From Minisyncoccota bacterium (GTDB lineage Bacteria > Patescibacteriota > Minisyncoccia > UBA6257 > HR35): a DNA stretch of 59,776 nt. The notes under the pieces were generated by a model. It was not told the DNA's origin. It searched no databases and was given only the letters and a program-made list of their open reading frames with translations. Both the position numbers and the translations under genes were made by a program. The stretch lies in contig CALHAT010000026.1 of the NCBI GenBank assembly GCA_937934285.1, positions 1 through 59,776 on the forward strand. Reading direction: 5' to 3'. Below, piece after piece: positions 8,273 to 17,235 of the stretch (its first letter is position 1; every line of letters starts with the position of its first letter).

Positions 8273-9118
8273 TTATAACATAAAATTAAAATAGATTTTA
8301 GTCAAAGATTCACCAAAAAGAATTGCTCCTAAGGTTCCTAAAAAAATAAAAGGAACAAAAGGAATTGGTTTCTTTAAGTTTTTCTCTTTTAAGATAAAAT
8401 AGATTCCACAAATTGAACCCAAAAAAGAACTGAGAATAATTGCTAAAAGACCATCGCCGGGTCTTAAAAAAAGCCCTAATAAAAAAGCAATCTTAACATC
8501 ACCAAAACCAATTCCTTTGCCTTGAGTAATTAAAAAAATCAAAAGAAGAATTGAACTTAAAAAAAATGGAGTAATTAAAGTTTCGAATTTCCCAAAGTTA
8601 AAAAGATAATTTAAAAGATAAGAAAAGTCACGAGGAAGGATTAAAAATTTTTTTTTAGCTAAATTAAATAAAATGCCTGTTAAGACACCAAAGAAAATTA
8701 ATCGATCATCAACCAAATAAGTTTTTAAATCATATAAAGCTAAAACAAAAAGAATACTAAAAAAAATTAAATAAAAAAGAAATTCTACAACAAATATCGG
8801 GTTTAGTGTTGTTTTTAGTGAAAAAGCTAAAAGGAAAACCCAAAAACCAGTAAAAATTTCTACCAATGGGTATCTGAAAGAAATTTTATTTTGACAGACA
8901 CGACATTTTCCTTTTTGGAAAATGAAGCTCAAAATCGGAATTAATTCATACCATTGTAAAATTTTCCCACAAGAAGGACACTTTGACCGAGAAAATAGAA
9001 AATCTTCGTTTTTTTCTAGTCTTAAAGCTATATTATTTAACAAAGAGCCCAGAAATAAACCTAAAATAAAAAAAAACATTAAAATCCAAAACGAGCACGA
9101 CAAATTTGATTTCGCCAA
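8273..9118 (-). CDS. pilD: Prepilin peptidase (A24 family, PilD-like)
   Basis: N-terminal zinc motif CPSCGK...CRVCQNKISFRYPLVE, a polytopic membrane profile and GIGFGDVK (Asp box). An alternative start at 9079 forms a TAATG junction with the upstream stop. Confidence 0.88.
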   Translation of the reverse strand: MAKSNLSCSFWILMFFFILGLFLGSLLNNIALRLEKNEDFLFSRSKCPSCGKILQWYELIPILSFIFQKGKCRVCQNKISFRYPLVEIFTGFWVFLLAFSLKTTLNPIFVVEFLFYLIFFSILFVLALYDLKTYLVDDRLIFFGVLTGILFNLAKKKFLILPRDFSYLLNYLFNFGKFETLITPFFLSSILLLIFLITQGKGIGFGDVKIAFLLGLFLRPGDGLLAIILSSFLGSICGIYFILKEKNLKKPIPFVPFIFLGTLGAILFGESLTKIYFNFML

Positions 9119-10335
9119 AATCTACAAGGGGCATCATTTTTACCTAAAACTTGAATAGTTTTTTCATAGAGAGGATGATTTCGCCAATCTCTTTGAGTTT
9201 GCACACAGAAACCCAAACGGCAATAATAATCATAAACCTTTAAAGAAAATTGCCGACAGTTATTACTGGGATTGACATCTGTTATTGGATTATTATTATT
9301 ATTAACTAAACAAGCAGTAACTGAATAATTATAAGCATTTTGAAATATATATTCCTCTTTAACTTCCTTAGGATAAGAAGAATTAAATTGTGATTCAATG
9401 CTTTTTGTTTCATAAGGTGAAGCTGAAATATCTTCGGGCTTTATAAATATTCGTAGCTTAGAAGAAGGACAATTGCCAAAATTACATTCTCCTTTAGCAG
9501 AAAACTCAACAGGTCGATTTCTTTGAGTTTCTGGACATTGAAGAATTGTTTTACCTTCTATTTGATTAATATTCATATAATCAGTAGCTGCTGTAGTTGA
9601 AGGTGGATATTGATAATTTGGGTTTCTTGAAAGATAATCTGAAATATAAGAAATGTCTGGAGTATTGTTTTTGCAAATAAAAGAACGAATATCAAGTTTT
9701 GTTACGGCAACATCAAAACAATTATTTGGATCTGGTAAACAGGTATTTTCTTGGTAAGTTGAACAGTCTTGTCTTATACAAGTTCGTACTGCTGGTCTAT
9801 GAGTAGGAGGACAACCACCTGTTCCACAATTACCTGTAATTGACCAATTACCACAAGATGGATTACAAGTTGGAGGTGGAGGAGGTGGTGGAGGAGGTGG
9901 TGGCGTGGAAGTTGGCGTGGAAGTTGGTGGAGAAGATCCTCCTGTTACAGTTATACTTCGGGAAGAACATTCATAGGTGAAGGATTCTCCAGCAACCCTA
10001 CACACAACAGTAGCTCGATAAGGTCCATAATTTCCTGGATTTTGATAAGTATAATTACAAGAAAAATTATTAAAAGTGCAGGGTCCGTTCCAGGATACGC
10101 TACAATTTGAAGAATTTGGAGAAACATTAAAGGTAACGGTTAATGGTGCTGATCCACTTGTCGGTGAAGCTGAGAGAGAGCATGACTGTTCACAAGCAGG
10201 TAAGAAAATTCCTTTTTCAAAAGTGAGTGGTTTGCCTAACAAATCAAAAAAAGGTCTGAAAATAAAAGCTTCGGTTATTAAAGGCAGGATTAGTAATAAA
10301 GAGGTTATAATAAAAATAAAATTATTATTTTTCAT
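9079..10335 (-). CDS. Secreted PKD-domain protein with a poly-proline linker and a Cys-rich C-terminal region
   Basis: Signal peptide. PKD-like segment SASPTSGSAPLTVTFNVS...YTYQNPGNYGPYRATV. A run of 11 Pro follows a TSTP x2 repeat. Many Cys lie downstream. GC is locally much higher than in the flanks. Confidence 0.7.
   Translation of the reverse strand: MKNNNFIFIITSLLLILPLITEAFIFRPFFDLLGKPLTFEKGIFLPACEQSCSLSASPTSGSAPLTVTFNVSPNSSNCSVSWNGPCTFNNFSCNYTYQNPGNYGPYRATVVCRVAGESFTYECSSRSITVTGGSSPPTSTPTSTPPPPPPPPPPPTCNPSCGNWSITGNCGTGGCPPTHRPAVRTCIRQDCSTYQENTCLPDPNNCFDVAVTKLDIRSFICKNNTPDISYISDYLSRNPNYQYPPSTTAATDYMNINQIEGKTILQCPETQRNRPVEFSAKGECNFGNCPSSKLRIFIKPEDISASPYETKSIESQFNSSYPKEVKEEYIFQNAYNYSVTACLVNNNNNPITDVNPSNNCRQFSLKVYDYYCRLGFCVQTQRDWRNHPLYEKTIQVLGKNDAPCRFWRNQICRARFGF
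9871..9927 (-). repeat. Low-complexity coding repeat: (CCN)11 poly-Pro tract plus a 12-bp x2 direct repeat
   Basis: On the plus strand, tggaggtggaggaggtggtggaggaggtggtgg (9871-9903) is followed by cgtggaagttgg x2 (9904-9927), which encodes TSTP-TSTP. Confidence 0.9.
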
Positions 10336-11218
10336 TTTTATTTATTATACTATAAATTTCTGCAATTTTTAAATTAAGGGATTCTCTGTCAAGTCCTTCA
10401 GCAATTTTAAGATAGCTTAAACCACTGATAATTTCTTTAGTTTTATTATAAAATTCTAAGGCTTTTTGCCATTCACCGTTTTTTTCATAAGCCAAAGCTA
10501 AATTAAAAGCAATGCCGGCTTTAATGTTTTCTATCATTTGTAAGGCTAATTTAGGATCATTATTAGGATAAGCTTGTAAGTAATCATTAACAGTTAAGTT
10601 TTGAGATTTTACAAAAGCTTTTTCTAATTCTTGAATAGCTAAATCATATCTACCTTGATTTAAATGAATAACTCCTAAACCATTTAAGCTCCAAATACTT
10701 TCCGGTTTTTTTTGATTCACAACTCTCATTATCTCTTCAGCTTTATCAAGCTTGCCCTGAGAAAATAAAATCCAAGCAAGATTTAAATAACCTGCCCAGC
10801 TATCTGTTAAAGATATTTCTTGACGAAAATCTTTTTCAGCTTTATCCCATTGCCGAAGATAGCCATAAATAATTCCTCTTTCATGATAAGCATAGGGATG
10901 ATTGGTAAGCTCTATTTCTTTAGTAAAGTAATTTAAAGCCTCATTTAAGGAAACAAAGCTTTGATTGAAAAAGAAAAATTTTCCTAATTCTAAATTAATG
11001 CCCGGATAGCGAGGATTTAATTTATAAATTTTTTTAAAATATTTAAAAGCCTCTTCATAATCACCTTCAGCTTTTAATCTCAGAGCGATTTCAAATAGAT
11101 TTTTAATGGATATTTGGTTTGATTTTAGTTTAATTAATTTATCTGTTAAAAAAAATATACTCAGACTTAAAAAAATTACCACCAGTAAATAATACTTTTT
11201 ATTATCCTGATGATTCAT
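10325..11218 (-). CDS. Membrane-anchored TPR-repeat protein
   Basis: N-terminal TM helix, then repeated TPR-like 34-mers (AEGDYEEAFKYFKKIYKLNP, QGKLDKAEEIM, QGRYDLAIQELEKA, NGEWQKALEFYNK). Confidence 0.75.
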   Translation of the reverse strand: MNHQDNKKYYLLVVIFLSLSIFFLTDKLIKLKSNQISIKNLFEIALRLKAEGDYEEAFKYFKKIYKLNPRYPGINLELGKFFFFNQSFVSLNEALNYFTKEIELTNHPYAYHERGIIYGYLRQWDKAEKDFRQEISLTDSWAGYLNLAWILFSQGKLDKAEEIMRVVNQKKPESIWSLNGLGVIHLNQGRYDLAIQELEKAFVKSQNLTVNDYLQAYPNNDPKLALQMIENIKAGIAFNLALAYEKNGEWQKALEFYNKTKEIISGLSYLKIAEGLDRESLNLKIAEIYSIINKNEK

Positions 11219-12346
11219 CTATTTTGATAATTCGTTTAAGACTTTTTCTAAATATCTTCGGTGGCTGGGTATAAGTAAATTTTTAGAGGCAAGTGCTTTA
11301 TTGTAATAATTTAGAGCTTCTTTTTTATCACCTTTAATTCTATAAATATCACCAATAACAATCCAGGCCGGAACTAACTCATTACTGCCGGGCCATTGAT
11401 ATTGCCAACCAGAAAAATTTTCTTTTAAATTACTATTATTTTCTATAATTTTGGGTATTAGGCTTTCAGCTTTAGCAAGTTGTCCTGCTTGAAGATATCG
11501 TTCGGCTGCTTCGCCATAAACTAAAACACGAAACCATCGAGGAAAATATTGGAAATTGTTCTCTTCAGATAATAAATTATCAAAAATTTCAACAATTTCA
11601 TTTAAATTATTGGGGACAGTGAATAAAGAAACATCTAATTTTTTTTCTTGAAGTAATAAATAATAAATATTTATTTTCTTCTGGTCCATAGCTGGAATTC
11701 GCTGAGGATAACTATAATTCTGACTAAAAAGTTTTAATCTTTCTTTATAATCCCGGGGTCTTATAATTAAAAAGTACCGTTGTGTCGCTTGCCATAATTG
11801 GTCAAATTCCCCATAATCTAATTCATAATTATTACCCAAAATAAAATCGTGGGCAATAACTTTTTTTCTTTTGTCATCTAAGCCAATAATCAATCGGTAT
11901 TCTAACCAATTTCCAGGATAATCTAAGCTTGTTTTTTGCAAAACAATAACCGGCGTTCTTTCTTGAGGATTAATAAACTTATATAAATCTTGGATACTAT
12001 TTGCTTGTAAAACTTGAGCATCAAATCCTGTTTGAAAAAGAGCAAAATGAGCCAGACTGTACATTGAAATTGCTCTAAGACCAATATTTTGAGGATAAGT
12101 TTTTAAAGAATTCTTTTCCTGATTCCAATAATCATAAACCATATCTAAAACAGCTTTAGCTGAGGTTCTAATTGGTCTACCATTATACAGATCAGCAGCA
12201 TTAAAACCAACATTATAAAAAGTATAATCCGGAACATTAGGAATAATATAAGAAGTTGTTCCTTTAAAATAAAACTTATAGGAAAGAAAACCAACTAATA
12301 GGATCCCAGCTAAGGTTGTTACAATTATTATAATTAACCTATTCAT
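11219..12346 (-). CDS. Membrane-anchored hypothetical protein: N-terminal domain reminiscent of a C39-like peptidase fold (no Cys in the whole protein), with a C-terminal TPR-like region
   Basis: TM anchor MNRLIIIIVTTLAGILLVGF. The layout ...TPVIVLQK...EYRLIIGLDDKRKKVIAHDF...YGEFDQLW resembles C39_2-type domains. The C-terminal part has TPR-like helices (GDKKEALNYYNKAL). I found zero cysteines on inspection. Confidence 0.55.
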   Translation of the reverse strand: MNRLIIIIVTTLAGILLVGFLSYKFYFKGTTSYIIPNVPDYTFYNVGFNAADLYNGRPIRTSAKAVLDMVYDYWNQEKNSLKTYPQNIGLRAISMYSLAHFALFQTGFDAQVLQANSIQDLYKFINPQERTPVIVLQKTSLDYPGNWLEYRLIIGLDDKRKKVIAHDFILGNNYELDYGEFDQLWQATQRYFLIIRPRDYKERLKLFSQNYSYPQRIPAMDQKKINIYYLLLQEKKLDVSLFTVPNNLNEIVEIFDNLLSEENNFQYFPRWFRVLVYGEAAERYLQAGQLAKAESLIPKIIENNSNLKENFSGWQYQWPGSNELVPAWIVIGDIYRIKGDKKEALNYYNKALASKNLLIPSHRRYLEKVLNELSK

Positions 12347-12367
12347 ATTAATTGTTGTATTTATTAA

Positions 12368-12847
12368 TTAAAGATTGGTACAACATGGGTAGGGGGGGTC
12401 CTCTGGACCACCTGAATCATCACACCCTCCGCAACATGATGGACTACTTCCTCCGCATGAATCAAAACAACCTTCACAACCTTCGGAACCTTCGGAACCT
12501 TCACAACCTTCGGAACCTTCGGAACCTTCGGAACCGCTCCCACCTTCGGAAGATGGGCCACTACATTCAACAAGAGCAGCATAAAGATCACCTTGATTAC
12601 CTCCTAAAGCTAACAAATTTTTATTTATTTTTTTAAAACCACATCCACCTCCACTACTTCCGCCTTCGACATGATCTGCCGAGGCTATATTCCAAGATTG
12701 ATATCTTTCTATAGAATAGTGGTTTTTTTTCTTTAGATAATTTAAAAAATTGTTAAATGGAGCTAACAGAAAAAACAAAATTAGAACAAATAGAATTTTT
12801 AAAAAATTTCCTATTTTTAAAGATGTATTAATAGCTTTTTTCACCAT
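12368..12847 (-). CDS. Candidate YcaO substrate or RiPP-like precursor: N-terminal basic plus hydrophobic segment and an acidic Cys/Ser/Gly-rich repeat tail
   Basis: It is the longest of three overlapping ORFs and the only one with a promoter. The last 66 aa (ECSGPSSEGGSGSEGSEGSEGCEGSEGSEGCEGCFDSCGGSSPSCCGGCDDSGGPEDPPYPCCTNL) hold 10 Cys, 14 Ser, 1 Thr, 17 Gly and 14 Asp/Glu, with no basic residue. It lies directly downstream of the ycaO and dehydrogenase genes. Confidence 0.6.
   Translation of the reverse strand: MVKKAINTSLKIGNFLKILFVLILFFLLAPFNNFLNYLKKKNHYSIERYQSWNIASADHVEGGSSGGGCGFKKINKNLLALGGNQGDLYAALVECSGPSSEGGSGSEGSEGSEGCEGSEGSEGCEGCFDSCGGSSPSCCGGCDDSGGPEDPPYPCCTNL
12469..12549 (-). 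repeat. 9-bp in-frame tandem repeat (7 near-perfect plus 2 degenerate units) encoding (G-S/C-E)n
   Basis: The plus-strand unit is aaccttc[a/g][c/g], tiled head to tail from 12469. Units 1-3 are identical to units 4-6, giving a 27-bp higher-order repeat. Confidence 0.9.
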
Positions 12848-12859
12848 CTTAATAAACTA

Positions 12860-12887
12860 ATTTTAACAAATTTTTTTATTTTGTCAA
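12860..12887 (-). promoter_or_regulatory. Sigma-70-type promoter for the Cys-rich ORF (TTGACA-N16-TAAAAT with a TGn extended -10)
   Basis: The minus strand reads TTGACAaaataaaaaaatttgtTAAAAT inside the 59-bp gap between the dehydrogenase stop and the ATG at 12847. The -10 lies only about 13 nt from the ATG, so the leader would be very short. Confidence 0.55.
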
Positions 12888-12906
12888 CAAAAGTTTTCCA
12901 CAGGCT

Positions 12907-13626
12907 TTATTTACCTATTAATAAAGTATAAACTAAGGATTCTTCAAAACCGTCAATATCTAATAGTTTTTTTTCTATCTCGTCATCATTGGTGCCAGCT
13001 AAAGCGCAGCATTTCAGTCCCAAAGCTGTAGTTAATAAATAAATATTTTGTCCGATATGGCCCGCTTCTTGCAAAATAAATCTATAACCCCTTTGACCAT
13101 ATTTGTTTAAAGTTCGCCAAAAAACACCAGTTAAAAAAATAATCAGTGATGAATCCTGGGCAAATTCATAAAAAAAATATTTTTTAAATTCTTCCTTATC
13201 AATTCCGGGATTAAATAAAAATTCAAGCTGATGATTTTTAACATCATAATGAAAGATACCCTTTTCTAACCCAGAACCTGGTTGGAGAATTAAACAATAA
13301 GTTTCAATGGGATATCTACCGCCACCTGAGGGTATAGCTCTTTTACCATTTTCTTGCAAACCACAAGAATACTTTAAAAGTAAAGACAATTCTTCTAAGC
13401 TGATTGGTTTTTGCGTAAATTCTCTTTGAGTCTCTCTTTTTTTTATAGCTTCAAACAAATTAAATTCTTTAAAATTGTCAATCAATTTGATTTTCTTAGC
13501 TCGTGGATATGATTTATAATAAATAGTTTTCCATTCCTCGGGCCATAAAGTTGAATCCTTGGGAATCTTTTTATAAAATTTTTTTGTATATTGATGAAAT
13601 ATATGAGCTAAAGGTATTTCTTTCAT
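12907..13626 (-). CDS. SagB-type (nitroreductase-fold, FMN) dehydrogenase
   Basis: RETQREF, PSGGGRYPIETY, GIFHYD, RTLNKYGQRGYRFILQEAGHIGQNIYL and ALGLKCCALAG match the SagB-type dehydrogenase domain pattern. The start overlaps the ycaO stop (ATGA). Confidence 0.8.
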   Translation of the reverse strand: MKEIPLAHIFHQYTKKFYKKIPKDSTLWPEEWKTIYYKSYPRAKKIKLIDNFKEFNLFEAIKKRETQREFTQKPISLEELSLLLKYSCGLQENGKRAIPSGGGRYPIETYCLILQPGSGLEKGIFHYDVKNHQLEFLFNPGIDKEEFKKYFFYEFAQDSSLIIFLTGVFWRTLNKYGQRGYRFILQEAGHIGQNIYLLTTALGLKCCALAGTNDDEIEKKLLDIDGFEESLVYTLLIGK

Positions 13627-15089
13627 GGAAAAAGATGAGGCAAGGAATTAATTTCTTGACGAATTAATCTTGGGCTTTTTTTTATTATGTCGCTCTCCCA
13701 GAGATAAAGAGGTAACAAGTTGGGAATTATTGCTTTAGCTGAATAATAACCTATTTTTTTTAAAACAGGATTATTTGACAAAAAGTAATAAACTTCATAA
13801 CCAGGTCCCAGACTTTCTATTTTTTTAACGACAAAGTTTAGCTCCTCTTTTAAAGAATTAAAAATTTTAAAACCGTCTTTATAAAGCTCATAAAAGCTTA
13901 ATTGGGGAGAATTGATAAAAAAATCCAGTTTACCTTTCATTTCTGAATTAGCCCATAAACGTAAACGATAATCTTGATTAACCCGAGAATCATAATAAGG
14001 AATAAGATTTGCTTCTTTAAAGGATGGAAAAGGTTGACGATAACTTATCCAATAAACCACGCTCCAAGCTTCAACAAAAGCCCTTTTTATAGCTTTTAAG
14101 GGATGGAGATTGCAACCTGCTCCCAAGCTATAACAGACTCCATTTTCTGAGGGATCATGAATTATTACTGAAAAAGAAGGTATTGCTAAATCAGTCGTAC
14201 AATCTAAAACATAAACTTCCAATCCATATTTAGTAGTTGTTTCGTAAAGAAATTGGAATTCTTGGTCAGGAACGGTTTGGGGGTCTATTCTTTTCGGAGT
14301 TATTTTATTAAGCCAGTGATAAAGAAAAGAATCTCTTTGAACTAATTCATAAACAGCGTATAAAATAGCTCCCTCCTGACTCCAATAACCGGCACAACCA
14401 TTAGTATTAGATTCAATAAGATGCGGCTCATCTTCAGCGCGTTTGTAATTCCAATAAACATATTGAGCAGGAATATAAAAGGTTTCATTAGTGCTCCATC
14501 TTTTCACTCTCTCCCAGTAAAATTTACTGTTTTTATCAAAATAGCGATCAGGAAAAATTCTTTTTTGCTCATCATCAAAACCGCTAATATTTTCTGGATT
14601 TATAACCTTAAATTTTCTTTGTAAATTTTTTAAAGAATCATAAATTAAATCTTTTCGAAAATAAATAGTTAGTGGAAATCTTTCTAAAAACTCATAAATC
14701 GCTTGATTAATGGTTTGTTCTAAATTTAACCCAAAGCCAGAAGCATAACCTCTTCGAGGTATATTACCGTCAGTTAGAACATAATCATAACTGGCTTTAA
14801 GTGAAAATCGATAAAAAAATGGCAAACCGTTTATTTTCTCATTGTGAGCAAAAAAGTTTTTTATAATTTTTTCTTTTAAAAGAGCTAAGAAAATTTTATT
14901 ATTATTTAACACTTCTAAATAATCATTGTCTCTTTCGTAAATTACAAGACCATCAATTCCGGTATTACCTTCTATTATCGTATAAACATTAGAAAATAAT
15001 TTATTTTGATATTTTAAAACTTCTTTAAAATTAACCAACTCAGCAACTGGTTTTGTCCGATAGCGACTTGTCCACAGAATTTTTTCCAT
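13623..15089 (-). CDS. ycaO: YcaO-domain protein (ATP-dependent backbone amide activation, cyclodehydratase-type)
   Basis: GYASGFGLNLEQTINQAIYEFLERF, ESNTNGCAGY, AVYELVQRDSF, LAIPSFSVII and a Pro-containing extreme C-terminus (SLPHLFP) match YcaO hallmarks. No fused E1-like domain is present. Confidence 0.85.
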   Translation of the reverse strand: MEKILWTSRYRTKPVAELVNFKEVLKYQNKLFSNVYTIIEGNTGIDGLVIYERDNDYLEVLNNNKIFLALLKEKIIKNFFAHNEKINGLPFFYRFSLKASYDYVLTDGNIPRRGYASGFGLNLEQTINQAIYEFLERFPLTIYFRKDLIYDSLKNLQRKFKVINPENISGFDDEQKRIFPDRYFDKNSKFYWERVKRWSTNETFYIPAQYVYWNYKRAEDEPHLIESNTNGCAGYWSQEGAILYAVYELVQRDSFLYHWLNKITPKRIDPQTVPDQEFQFLYETTTKYGLEVYVLDCTTDLAIPSFSVIIHDPSENGVCYSLGAGCNLHPLKAIKRAFVEAWSVVYWISYRQPFPSFKEANLIPYYDSRVNQDYRLRLWANSEMKGKLDFFINSPQLSFYELYKDGFKIFNSLKEELNFVVKKIESLGPGYEVYYFLSNNPVLKKIGYYSAKAIIPNLLPLYLWESDIIKKSPRLIRQEINSLPHLFP

Positions 15090-15097
15090 TTTTTAAT

Positions 15098-16027
15098 TTA
15101 CAATTTTAAAATCGCTTTAGCATTATTATAATAAATTTTTTTTAAAACATCCACTGGCAAAGCTAAACCTTCATAATATTCTTTAGAAGCAAAAAGGATA
15201 TCTTGATAATATTCTTTTTGCAAAATGGACAAGTCTAAAATAATTCTTTTAACAAACCATAAAAAATTTTTTTGCGGATCATCATCAATAACAATATCTG
15301 CAGCCCATAAAATTTTATCCTGAAACTTTATTAAAAAATTTCTGAACATATCTTTATTAAATTCAACAATGGTCATATATTTCTTAATTCCATAACCCGA
15401 AGAAATATCTATAAAAACATTAGAATATTTACTTAAAAGATATTCGCAAAGACTCAAACTTACTTTTTCGTCTAAGATACAAGAAGCATAATGAGCTAAA
15501 ATAAAATTTACTGTTGAGAATTTTTTAGCGATTTCCTCAAATTGATTTAAAAATTTATTATTTTTATGAAAATCAATATGCAAAAGAACGGGTACTTGAT
15601 ATTTATTAGCGACTTCATAAACTTTATACATATTTTCACTATTAATATCAGCAATAAAATTTTTAGTTTTTTCCGAATAAAACCAATCAATAAACTTAAT
15701 TCCTTGAGCACCATTTTTTATAGTTTCTTCTATGAATTCAGCTGCTGTCGTATCACCAGAATAACAGGTAGTAAAAATTATTATTCTTTCCCCAAATTTC
15801 TTCTTAAAATCAAAAAGACGGTAAAGGTGGTTTTTAAAAATAGGGTTATAAGGAGGCCAGTCAGTTGGTAAAAAAACAGCTTTTTCAATATTAAGAATCC
15901 TCATTGCCCAAATAAAAGATTCAATATTTCCTCCTGATCGATAATGCTCGTGAATAGAGATTTTTTTAAAATTTAAAAAATCAGTATCTAAAAATACTTT
16001 TCCCAAAACATTTAAAAAATCTTTCAT
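15098..16027 (-). CDS. Metal-dependent TIM-barrel amidohydrolase (amidohydrolase_2-like)
   Basis: N-terminal SIHEHY (HxH), mid-protein VLLHIDFH and FILAHYA, C-terminal LWAADIV and a terminal YYNNAKAILKL typical of this family. It sits 2 nt after the pilC stop and 8 nt before ycaO. Confidence 0.68.
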   Translation of the reverse strand: MKDFLNVLGKVFLDTDFLNFKKISIHEHYRSGGNIESFIWAMRILNIEKAVFLPTDWPPYNPIFKNHLYRLFDFKKKFGERIIIFTTCYSGDTTAAEFIEETIKNGAQGIKFIDWFYSEKTKNFIADINSENMYKVYEVANKYQVPVLLHIDFHKNNKFLNQFEEIAKKFSTVNFILAHYASCILDEKVSLSLCEYLLSKYSNVFIDISSGYGIKKYMTIVEFNKDMFRNFLIKFQDKILWAADIVIDDDPQKNFLWFVKRIILDLSILQKEYYQDILFASKEYYEGLALPVDVLKKIYYNNAKAILKL

Positions 16028-16029
16028 TT

Positions 16030-17235
16030 TTAGAAACTCTGAACATATTTAGTCAAAGTTAGTAAAGGAATAAGCAAAGAAGCTTCTAAAAGACCCAAAG
16101 CGGCTCCTAATAAAAGTATTAAAATTGGCTGTAAGGCTTCACTTAGATTAGTAACTTGATTTTCAACTATTTCATTGTAAAAATTATAAAGAGTTAAGGT
16201 AACCTCAGCAAGCTCGCCTGTCTTTTCAGCGGTTTTAATACCTTCAATCATAAAACTTTGAAAAAGGTCAGGGAAATTTGATAAAGATTCACTGAGAGGT
16301 GAACCTTTTTTGACATCTTCAACGATATATTCAAGAGCGGAAACATATAAGGGATTATCAAAGCTATCTTTGATAATTTCCAAAGCTTCAACGATTGGAA
16401 CCCCACCCTTGCTTAAGTGATATAGTGATTCTAAAAATTGAGCCGAATAATTGTTTTTAATTAAAGATCCCAAAATGGGTACATCGGAGACTAATTTAAA
16501 TAAGGTTGCCTTGCCCTCTGAAGTTTTAAATAGATAATCATAAAAATAAAATCCCAAAAGAATTAATGCGCCCAATATAAATAGTCCGAATTGTAATAGC
16601 AAATCAGCTATTGATTTAAAAATTTTAGTAATTAAAGGCATAGGTACATTATTTTCGGCAAAAATCGCTACTATTTGAGGAACAACATAATAAAATAGAG
16701 CGAAAAGAACGCCAAGAAAAATAAAAACAACAATAATAGGATAGATTGAAGCTTGAATAAGTCTATTCTTAAATTTAAATTGAGCATATAGATGTTGCGC
16801 GAGATATTCTAAAGTTTCATCTAAAACACCAACTGATTCTCCAATTTTAATCATTCCTACATAATAAGAATCAAAAATATCAGGAAATCTTGCTAATGAT
16901 TGAGAAAAGGTGATTCCGGAAATCAAATCATTATAAATCTCAACTAAAATCGAACGAAGAGCAGAATTTGGCATAGCTTCAGAAAGAGCTCTGATTGATT
17001 CATCTAAAGGTGTTCTTGATTTGATAAGATAAGAAAGTTGTTTGGTAAAGAAATAAATATCTCTTATGTTGGGTTTAAAAAGATAAGAAACTAAACTTAA
17101 TCGTTTTTCTGATAAATAAGTAACTAAAAGTTCCTGATTTTGTAAAATCTGTAAAGCTGCCTCTTTGTTATCAGCTGAAATAATTCCTTCTTTAAGTTTT
17201 CCTTCCCGAGTATAAGCTTTAAATTCAAACTGCAT
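16030..17235 (-). CDS. pilC: Type IV pilus platform protein PilC (GspF family)
   Basis: Two GspF-type repeats, three TM segments and the typical 401-aa length. It sits directly after pilT. Confidence 0.88.
   Translation of the reverse strand: MQFEFKAYTREGKLKEGIISADNKEAALQILQNQELLVTYLSEKRLSLVSYLFKPNIRDIYFFTKQLSYLIKSRTPLDESIRALSEAMPNSALRSILVEIYNDLISGITFSQSLARFPDIFDSYYVGMIKIGESVGVLDETLEYLAQHLYAQFKFKNRLIQASIYPIIVVFIFLGVLFALFYYVVPQIVAIFAENNVPMPLITKIFKSIADLLLQFGLFILGALILLGFYFYDYLFKTSEGKATLFKLVSDVPILGSLIKNNYSAQFLESLYHLSKGGVPIVEALEIIKDSFDNPLYVSALEYIVEDVKKGSPLSESLSNFPDLFQSFMIEGIKTAEKTGELAEVTLTLYNFYNEIVENQVTNLSEALQPILILLLGAALGLLEASLLIPLLTLTKYVQSF

Follow-up and report, generated by a model that had tools for sequence, protein, structure and literature searches.

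The locus and its boundaries

The window examined here is a stretch of 59,776 nucleotides (contig CALHAT010000026.1 of assembly GCA_937934285.1) from a Minisyncoccota bacterium, in which a gene for a YcaO protein and a gene for a putative metal-dependent amidohydrolase lie side by side at the head of a small gene island, probably concerned with peptide modification, within a type IV pilus operon. The stretch has a GC content of about 30%, and every gene of the region lies on the minus strand. With domains called by Pfam and NCBIfam scans of the translated open reading frames (ORFs) at E <= 0.1, the order of transcription is pilM, pilN, pilO, pilB, pilT and pilC, followed by the genes for an Amidohydro_2-family protein, the YcaO protein, a SagB-type dehydrogenase, a candidate precursor peptide, a C39-like/tetratricopeptide repeat (TPR) protein, a further TPR protein, a cysteine-rich protein of 418 residues and a prepilin peptidase.

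The core of the system is compact. Two nucleotides separate pilC (16030-17235; T2SSF, PF00482), which forms the upstream boundary of the island and is itself outside the system, from the gene for the Amidohydro_2-family metal hydrolase (15098-16027; 309 residues; PF04909), an accessory of the island that is specific to this lineage. After a further 8 nucleotides comes the gene for a putative SagD-like YcaO cyclodehydratase (13623-15089; 488 residues, ending in ...LPHLFP; PF02624). These two junctions place the amidohydrolase gene within one transcription unit, and the stop codon of the YcaO gene shares a 4-nucleotide overlap, ATGA, with the start codon of the gene for the SagB-type FMN dehydrogenase (12907-13626; 239 residues; TIGR03605 and PF00881). 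The ORF and Pfam calls thereby confirm the description given by an earlier sequence-only reading of the region, that of a YcaO protein of 488 residues tightly coupled to an amidohydrolase. Next in order are the candidate precursor, recognized from its translation (12368-12847; 159 residues), a membrane-anchored protein in which a C39-like domain is combined with TPRs (11219-12346; 375 residues), and a TPR protein with matches to multiple TPR families (10325-11218; 297 residues), the last gene common to related cassettes.

Comparison with related genomes defines the extent of the island. Synteny in two genomes of the same genus (G001 and G002) finds pilT, pilC, pilD, gatC and the gene for IF-2 contiguous, with pilC directly beside pilD, so the genes that separate these two in the window have been inserted. 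The sequence-only reading had left room for an amidohydrolase conserved beside pilC in relatives that lack YcaO; among 60 relatives of the same order the amidohydrolase occurs in none, and a YcaO in just three, all distant from that of the window. Synteny and the absence from these 60 genomes together rule out the amidohydrolase as a gene of the pilus operon itself.

The downstream boundary is the prepilin peptidase gene pilD (8273-9118; PF06750 and PF01478), again outside the system. It is preceded by the gene for the secreted, cysteine-rich protein of 418 residues (9079-10335), a homologue of which (L101:6271-7791; 55% identity over the C-terminal half) stands directly before pilD in a genome of the same family (G003) that has no YcaO. 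This protein probably belongs with the pilus genes rather than with the island and is placed outside it. Given the arrangement in G003, the island is set at 10325-16027, an insertion of about 5.7 kb between pilC and the genes preceding pilD that interrupts the type IV pilus operon.

Family and likely chemistry of the YcaO protein

The Pfam YcaO domain covers residues 117-458 of the protein and profile positions 1-324 of 325 (E 3.8e-51; 174.8 bits against a cut-off of 25.7), and the motif GYASGFGLNLEQ...EFLERF starts at G114. The best NCBIfam model is that of SagD (TIGR03604), at 192.9 bits and under its curated cut-off of 219.25; the model for McrA thioamidation (methan_mark_1) reaches 75.9 bits against a cut-off of 365. 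An AlphaFold2 model made with 25 homologues has a predicted local distance difference test (pLDDT) score of 88.7. Its top PDB matches in Foldseek are LynD (E 6e-25), MusD, MJ1094 and TruD, with McbD at an E value of about 3e-15, and the fold also matches that of Escherichia coli YcaO. E133, E136 and R137, E248, R252 and D253, and E340 are invariant in the family alignment, as are the named residues of the C-terminal P484-H485-x-F487-P488. At this end the family consensus is ...NPLPHPFP, from which the window protein (...SLPHLFP) departs by a change of the middle proline to leucine, the outer prolines, the histidine and the phenylalanine being kept. A proline-rich C terminus has been described as characteristic of azoline-forming YcaO proteins (PMC8442711).

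The adjacent dehydrogenase matches the SagB model TIGR03605 (E 1e-39; 135.8 bits against a cut-off of 78.4) and carries the Lys-Tyr motif in the sequence LNKYGQRGYRF. A SagB lies within the flanks of YcaO in 27 of 38 clustered loci of the candidate phyla radiation (CPR). Because SagD is the best model, LynD, MusD and TruD are among the best structural matches, the C-terminal P-H-x-F-P tail is conserved and a SagB with the Lys-Tyr motif stands alongside, the most likely chemistry of this YcaO would be the formation of azol(in)es on the adjacent Cys/Ser-rich peptide. The arrangement is like that of the SagBCD, McbBCD and BalhBCD synthetases in having a D-type YcaO whose C-terminal tail contains proline and, beside it, a SagB-type dehydrogenase. 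It is unlike them in that the window genome has neither a C nor an F protein, its YcaO branches apart from the E1-partnered ones and the precursor has a transmembrane (TM) helix.

Absence of a canonical partner

The general view is that a YcaO protein that forms azolines depends on a partner, E1-like or ThiF-like, to bind the leader. Among the neighbouring genes of the window, the Pfam and NCBIfam scans give no match to an E1-like, ThiF, Ocin-ThiF, TfuA or PqqD family, and six-frame profile searches of the whole genome (465 kb, 93.6% complete) found no ThiF (PF00899), SagC (TIGR03603), TIGR03882, TfuA (PF07812) or PqqD (PF05402). As regards a thioamide route, there is thus no TfuA in the genome, and the island contains neither TfuA nor a sulfur-transfer gene. 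Loci of thiazole/oxazole-modified microcins (TOMMs) from outside the CPR, fetched with the YcaO family profile, served as positive controls, and in nine of these nine the ORF directly upstream of YcaO matches TIGR03882, TIGR03603 or ThiF (E 1e-8 to 1e-20). The statement of the sequence-only reading that no recognizable E1, Ocin-ThiF or TfuA partner is present is borne out by these three lines of evidence. A more sensitive profile comparison, which that reading had named as capable of exposing an E1-like or ThiF-like neighbour, exposed none: hhalign of an alignment of E1-like proteins against the C39-like/TPR family, the YcaO N terminus and the amidohydrolase family gave probabilities below 1% throughout. 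The C39-like/TPR protein (0.29%) and the amidohydrolase (0.36%) were accordingly rejected as carriers of a cryptic E1-like domain.

The same absence extends well beyond the window. With nine partner proteins of the control loci as tblastn queries over locus flanks, an E1-like gene was found in 34 of 48 non-CPR loci as compared with 0 of 45 CPR loci. A maximum-likelihood tree of 86 YcaO proteins, its rows labelled by partner type, splits at 94/85 into a clade of 42 that holds all of the CPR sequences and no E1-like gene and a clade of 44, of which 33 are E1-partnered. On these counts and this tree, the absence of a canonical partner appears as a trait of the whole CPR clade and not as a peculiarity of the window.

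The N-terminal extension

The N-terminal 116 residues of the YcaO (14742-15089), described here from predicted structure and length comparison, have no Pfam assignment. The sequence-only reading had drawn attention to some 90 unassigned residues in front of the first YcaO motif; the extension exists, its length by Pfam being 116. About 55-70 of these residues reach beyond the N terminus of discrete E1-partnered D proteins, and the number of residues before the Pfam start has a median of 130 in CPR YcaO proteins versus about 57-66 in those D proteins. The joint occurrence of a longer N terminus and a missing E1 partner across the CPR clade favours a compensating role for the extension. Its predicted secondary structure consists of a strand at 16-20, a helix at 30-43, a strand at 48-52, helices at 56-62 and 65-72, and strands at 76-84 and 92-99, and a model of the isolated region has a pLDDT of 72.8.

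The suggestion of the sequence-only reading that this extension conceals a recognition element of the kind found in pathways for peptides made on the ribosome and modified afterwards (RiPPs), an RRE, found no support. Pfam gave no match to the extension in 19 family members, and a PDB profile search returned no match to the region. Its hhalign probability was 0.18% against a PqqD profile built from seven CPR matches and 0.39% against nine E1-like partner proteins, and Foldseek with the isolated model gave nothing better than E 0.39. Conservation within the protein is also lowest here, the mean column identity being 38% compared with 54% overall, and the first 58 or so residues are missing from the orthologue at L007.

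The CPR clade and the gene upstream of YcaO

Close relatives of the window YcaO are few, only 28 proteins having been recovered in a search of 5.8 billion, most of them about 514 residues long, and those that carry a label are from Patescibacteria/CPR. In the tree, the window protein groups with those of L006 and L007 at 100/100, and this group is nested at 100/95 among YcaO proteins partnered by what is here called an AMMECR1-toroid protein. The usual upstream gene in this subclade encodes such a protein, of about 640 residues, in which an AMMECR1 domain is followed by a C-terminal helical toroid-like domain. Searched by tblastn with both halves of this protein, the whole window genome gave nothing under E 0.1. 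From the nesting in the tree together with synteny, the amidohydrolase-first order is therefore derived from the AMMECR1-toroid-first order, and the amidohydrolase is a lineage-specific recruit that replaces the AMMECR1-toroid gene of sister lineages. Homology between the two proteins was considered and set aside, no sequence similarity having been found.

The AMMECR1-toroid-coupled modules of other CPR genomes are in most respects like that of the window, whose YcaO is nested among theirs and which has SagB, TM-leader precursor and C39-like/TPR genes in common with them; they differ in that the window genome has no AMMECR1-toroid gene and an unrelated Amidohydro_2 gene fills the slot. A further 21 CPR loci have neither gene within their flanks. 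At one locus (L008:8001-10550, plus strand) a YcaO of 849 residues has a toroid-like domain fused to its N terminus, and this fusion is 31% identical (E 8e-38) to residues 323-644 of a free AMMECR1-toroid protein (L001:6013-7959). It reads as a Rosetta-stone fusion, which suggests that an occupant of the slot can act physically with YcaO. A literature search found no paper that links AMMECR1 with YcaO.

Clusters of YcaO and nitroreductase genes in the CPR have already been published, with 110 clusters reported from 93 further CPR genomes and a nitroreductase beside YcaO in 89 of them (Sharrar et al. 2020, mBio, PMC7298704). Like the window, these clusters for linear peptides that contain azoles or azolines (LAPs) combine a YcaO next to a nitroreductase/SagB with a peptidase-like gene and a precursor rich in Cys and Ser, in genomes of Patescibacteria. 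As far as the available part of that account goes, the absence of an E1 partner, the AMMECR1-toroid protein and the amidohydrolase are not taken up in it, and the clusters presented there differ from that of the window, where the amidohydrolase comes first and the "peptidase" lacks a catalytic cysteine. CPR LAP clusters as such are known; the cluster of the window is new as an E1-independent, SagD-like YcaO with a recruited Amidohydro_2 protein in place of the AMMECR1-toroid protein.

Other genes also recur near CPR YcaO proteins. Tandem paralogous ORFs of 148-177 residues adjoin YcaO in four loci labelled Saccharibacteria (for example L019:4069-5567, L020:4262-5797 and L025:10601-12117). The one member that was scanned (L019:4069-4584) is rhodanese-like, which hints at sulfur transfer in those variants. 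A fusion of a phosphoribosyltransferase with a beta-propeller (PQQ_2 / ACSF4-type) is found near YcaO at seven loci, including L020:1107-2753 and L030:3220-4926.

The amidohydrolase and its associations

The Amidohydro_2 match of the window protein scores 36.9 bits against a cut-off of 26.4, and there is a weak match to a dihydroorotase model over residues 23-181. H26, E27, H28, K111, H179, D207 and D244 are invariant in an alignment of 26 homologues, and H150 is nearly so. The metal ligands appear to be intact, with a spacing that we take to resemble that seen in dihydroorotase-type enzymes, whose binuclear set is HxH / Lys / His / His / Asp, and the window protein has no signal peptide. No close relative of solved structure is found, a phmmer search against PDB chains having returned none and a family profile just weak matches to 3nur (E 2e-4) and 3irs (E 0.012).

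The pairing of this protein with a YcaO, as put forward in the sequence-only reading, proves real. It is kept in two relatives, at L006 (83% identity for the amidohydrolase and 79% for the YcaO) and at L007 (54% and 47%), the latter also with a pilC fragment upstream. It recurs with a distant YcaO on the Parcubacteria-type contigs L009-L011, where the amidohydrolase is 46% identical to that of the window and the YcaO just 23%. There the cluster contains a pyridoxal phosphate-dependent decarboxylase, a TM-leader precursor of the window's type (...SKASADVPGGGG...EEEE...GSCG) and a C39/TPR homologue, and the co-occurrence is an independent recurrence of the amidohydrolase with a YcaO system. Two details of these loci may be recorded. 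At L007:1189-4815, two YcaO proteins flank SagB, the first of 437 residues and the second of 515, which is 30% identical to the window YcaO; at L009:7001-14056, the precursor is Gly/Glu-rich, there is no SagB and a radical S-adenosylmethionine gene lies nearby.

The amidohydrolase family as a whole is much broader than this association. Of the 120 homologues listed, many are lipoprotein forms of about 388 residues. Of 41 metagenome loci that span 6 kb or more, a YcaO lies near an amidohydrolase homologue in one, which is of the L009 type, so that a general, family-wide association with YcaO is rejected. Elsewhere the homologues are accompanied by ATP-grasp/7TM-transglutaminase genes or by unrelated genes, and the amidohydrolase looks like a recruit rather than a dedicated RiPP family. 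Homologues with 44-47% identity stand tail-to-tail with ATP-grasp (ATPgrasp_ST / RimK-like) genes at L012:7001-11295, L013:250-2040 and L114-L116, a 7TM-transglutaminase gene following at L012; these contexts are a different kind of peptide-modification setting. On two short metagenome contigs (L174:1128-2963 and L175:1115-2950), the gene immediately upstream of an amidohydrolase homologue (36% identity) encodes a nitroreductase 32% identical to the window SagB, with no YcaO visible on either.

Bottromycin biosynthesis, which the sequence-only reading had invoked as a parallel, offers the obvious point of comparison. In that pathway the follower peptide is taken off by the dinuclear-zinc amidohydrolase PurAH (PMC7136475; PMC10885120). 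The analogy stands at the level of superfamily and concept, in that BotC/BotCD and BotAH/PurAH likewise combine partner-less YcaO chemistry with an amidohydrolase-superfamily enzyme in the cluster. It does not extend further. The window precursor has a long N-terminal leader containing a TM helix and a C-terminal Cys-rich part, with no follower arrangement, and the window has a SagD-like YcaO and a SagB dehydrogenase. Its amidohydrolase belongs to Pfam Amidohydro_2, with 3nur and 3irs as its only, weak, PDB matches, and the searches of PDB chains, a set in which the presence of PurAH is unconfirmed, gave no evidence of orthology to PurAH.

The precursor and the C39-like/TPR protein

The candidate precursor comprises an N-terminal TM helix, a junction of the form ...IASADHVEGG... 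and an acidic tail rich in Gly, Ser and Cys, an architecture that is repeated in ORFs of 65-92 residues in relatives. Between the TM leader and the acidic Gly/Cys/Ser core, the precursors have in common a junction motif A-(S/x)-A-D-(H/Y)-(V/P), seen as IASADHVEGG, VLADHVEGG, VIADYVPSD, ASADVPGG and VNADYPYEGG, the loci concerned being the window (12368-12847), L006:3239-3433, L007:4868-5089, L009:9304-9552 (minus strand) and L004:11178-11411. This motif may be a processing site.

The protein encoded next matches the C39_PA2778 model (NF033920) at E 2.2e-8, in addition to its TPR matches. In the alignment of its family, none of seven members has a cysteine at the papain-type nucleophile position, the window protein has no cysteine at all, and most members retain an (I/V)-V-H-D motif. 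These features suggest a pseudo-peptidase, one that is membrane-anchored like the precursor and might plausibly bind the leader. Six further loci (L001, L004, L009, L022, L023 and L037) encode homologues of it, and 11 other CPR YcaO loci encode homologues of the 297-residue TPR protein. A recurrent downstream family of 361-445 residues at other CPR loci was tried as a diverged C39/TPR family and discarded, hhalign having aligned just 9 columns.

Weighing the explanations

The explanation preferred here, to which a probability of roughly 0.6 is given, is that the amidohydrolase and the YcaO head an inserted island of a CPR-specific linear azol(in)e-peptide clade, in which YcaO acts without an E1-like, ThiF-like or TfuA partner. 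The YcaO would use ATP to cyclodehydrate Cys and Ser within the precursor's acidic tail, rich in Gly, Ser and Cys, and SagB would then oxidize the resulting azolines to azoles. Engagement of the substrate would proceed without an RRE and would fall to the YcaO itself, possibly aided by its clade-wide N-terminal extension and possibly also by the membrane-anchored C39-like/TPR pseudo-peptidase. In the cytoplasm, the amidohydrolase would mature or tailor the peptide as a metal-dependent hydrolase, for example by cutting an amide where leader and core meet or at the C terminus; it is probably not a leader-recognition partner.

Several points weigh against this explanation. The SagD score lies under its curated cut-off, the tail of the window YcaO reads PHLFP rather than PxPxP, and a precursor of 159 residues with a TM helix is unusual for LAPs. 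The cryptic E1-like partner AmiB of streptamidine escaped sequence methods (PMC8442711). The breadth of the amidohydrolase family, its unrelated contexts and the single YcaO association among the 41 metagenome loci mean that the amidohydrolase could be a passenger gene.

Four other explanations deserve to be weighed beside it, two of which concern the partner. That the N-terminal residues of the YcaO, some 110 in number, form a fused leader-binding domain of non-RRE type, making the enzyme self-sufficient, is a tentative proposal and somewhat unlikely: the longer N terminus of the E1-less CPR proteins speaks for it, as does the prediction of a folded alpha/beta unit (pLDDT 64-90) with conserved L70, N87 and P90, although neither Pfam nor PDB profile, hhalign or Foldseek searches relate the region to PqqD/RRE or E1-like N termini, it is the least conserved of the protein and its first 58 or so residues are missing at L007. 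It is less probable, and on the whole doubtful, that the amidohydrolase replaces the AMMECR1-toroid protein in function, as an obligate partner of YcaO or in the same maturation step, the two being interchangeable modules of one slot. The position and tight coupling of the amidohydrolase match those of the AMMECR1-toroid gene in sister lineages, the tree places the swap as derived inside the AMMECR1-toroid-partnered clade, and the fusion at L008 points to physical action of a slot occupant with YcaO. The two proteins are nonetheless unrelated in sequence and different in fold, the 21 CPR loci with neither gene do not make the occupant look obligatory, and the amidohydrolase family occurs mostly away from YcaO proteins.

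The remaining two concern what the enzymes do. An amidohydrolase that is a mere passenger with no role in peptide maturation, such as a hydrolase of small-molecule cyclic amides, would accord with the dihydroorotase-like pattern of ligands and with the many unrelated contexts of its homologues, which include lipoprotein forms by housekeeping or regulatory genes, hydantoinase B and ATP-grasp. Set against this are the 2- and 8-nucleotide junctions that put the gene in one transcription unit, its retention while the YcaO diverged to 47% identity and its reappearance, in a distant lineage, beside the same combination of precursor, C39-TPR protein and YcaO; moreover, an unused gene would be unlikely to persist in a 465-kb genome, and a passenger is quite unlikely. 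It is highly improbable that the YcaO makes no azolines at all and instead forms a thioamide or an amidine, or performs ATP-dependent peptide cleavage like MusD, with the amidohydrolase resolving an intermediate. MusD, an ATP-dependent peptidase by its PDB title, is the second-best structural match, and the SagD score and the lost middle proline of PxPxP can be read in the same direction, yet a SagB with the Lys-Tyr motif is translationally coupled to the YcaO, the island has no TfuA or sulfur-transfer gene and the precursor core is rich in Cys and Ser.

Implications

A bolder and very unlikely extension of the slot replacement holds that the upstream slot accommodates interchangeable enzymes and that a dihydroorotase-like binuclear amidohydrolase acts directly on the product of an E1-independent YcaO. 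If this were true, the amidohydrolase could open an azoline or hydrolyse next to it as PurAH does, setting the cleavage between leader and core or at the C terminus, and YcaO-amidohydrolase two-enzyme chemistry would exist outside bottromycin. The window would also offer evidence from nature against the AMMECR1-toroid protein as an obligate partner of YcaO.

For the CPR clade of YcaO proteins without canonical partners, the window represents a natural swap, in which the AMMECR1-toroid gene is gone and an amidohydrolase stands in its place. This swap makes two matters directly testable with as few as four or five small genes, the recognition of a membrane-type leader by YcaO alone and the standing of the upstream-slot protein as partner or as tailoring enzyme. 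Beside bottromycin, it may also be a second case in which YcaO chemistry is linked to an enzyme of the amidohydrolase superfamily.

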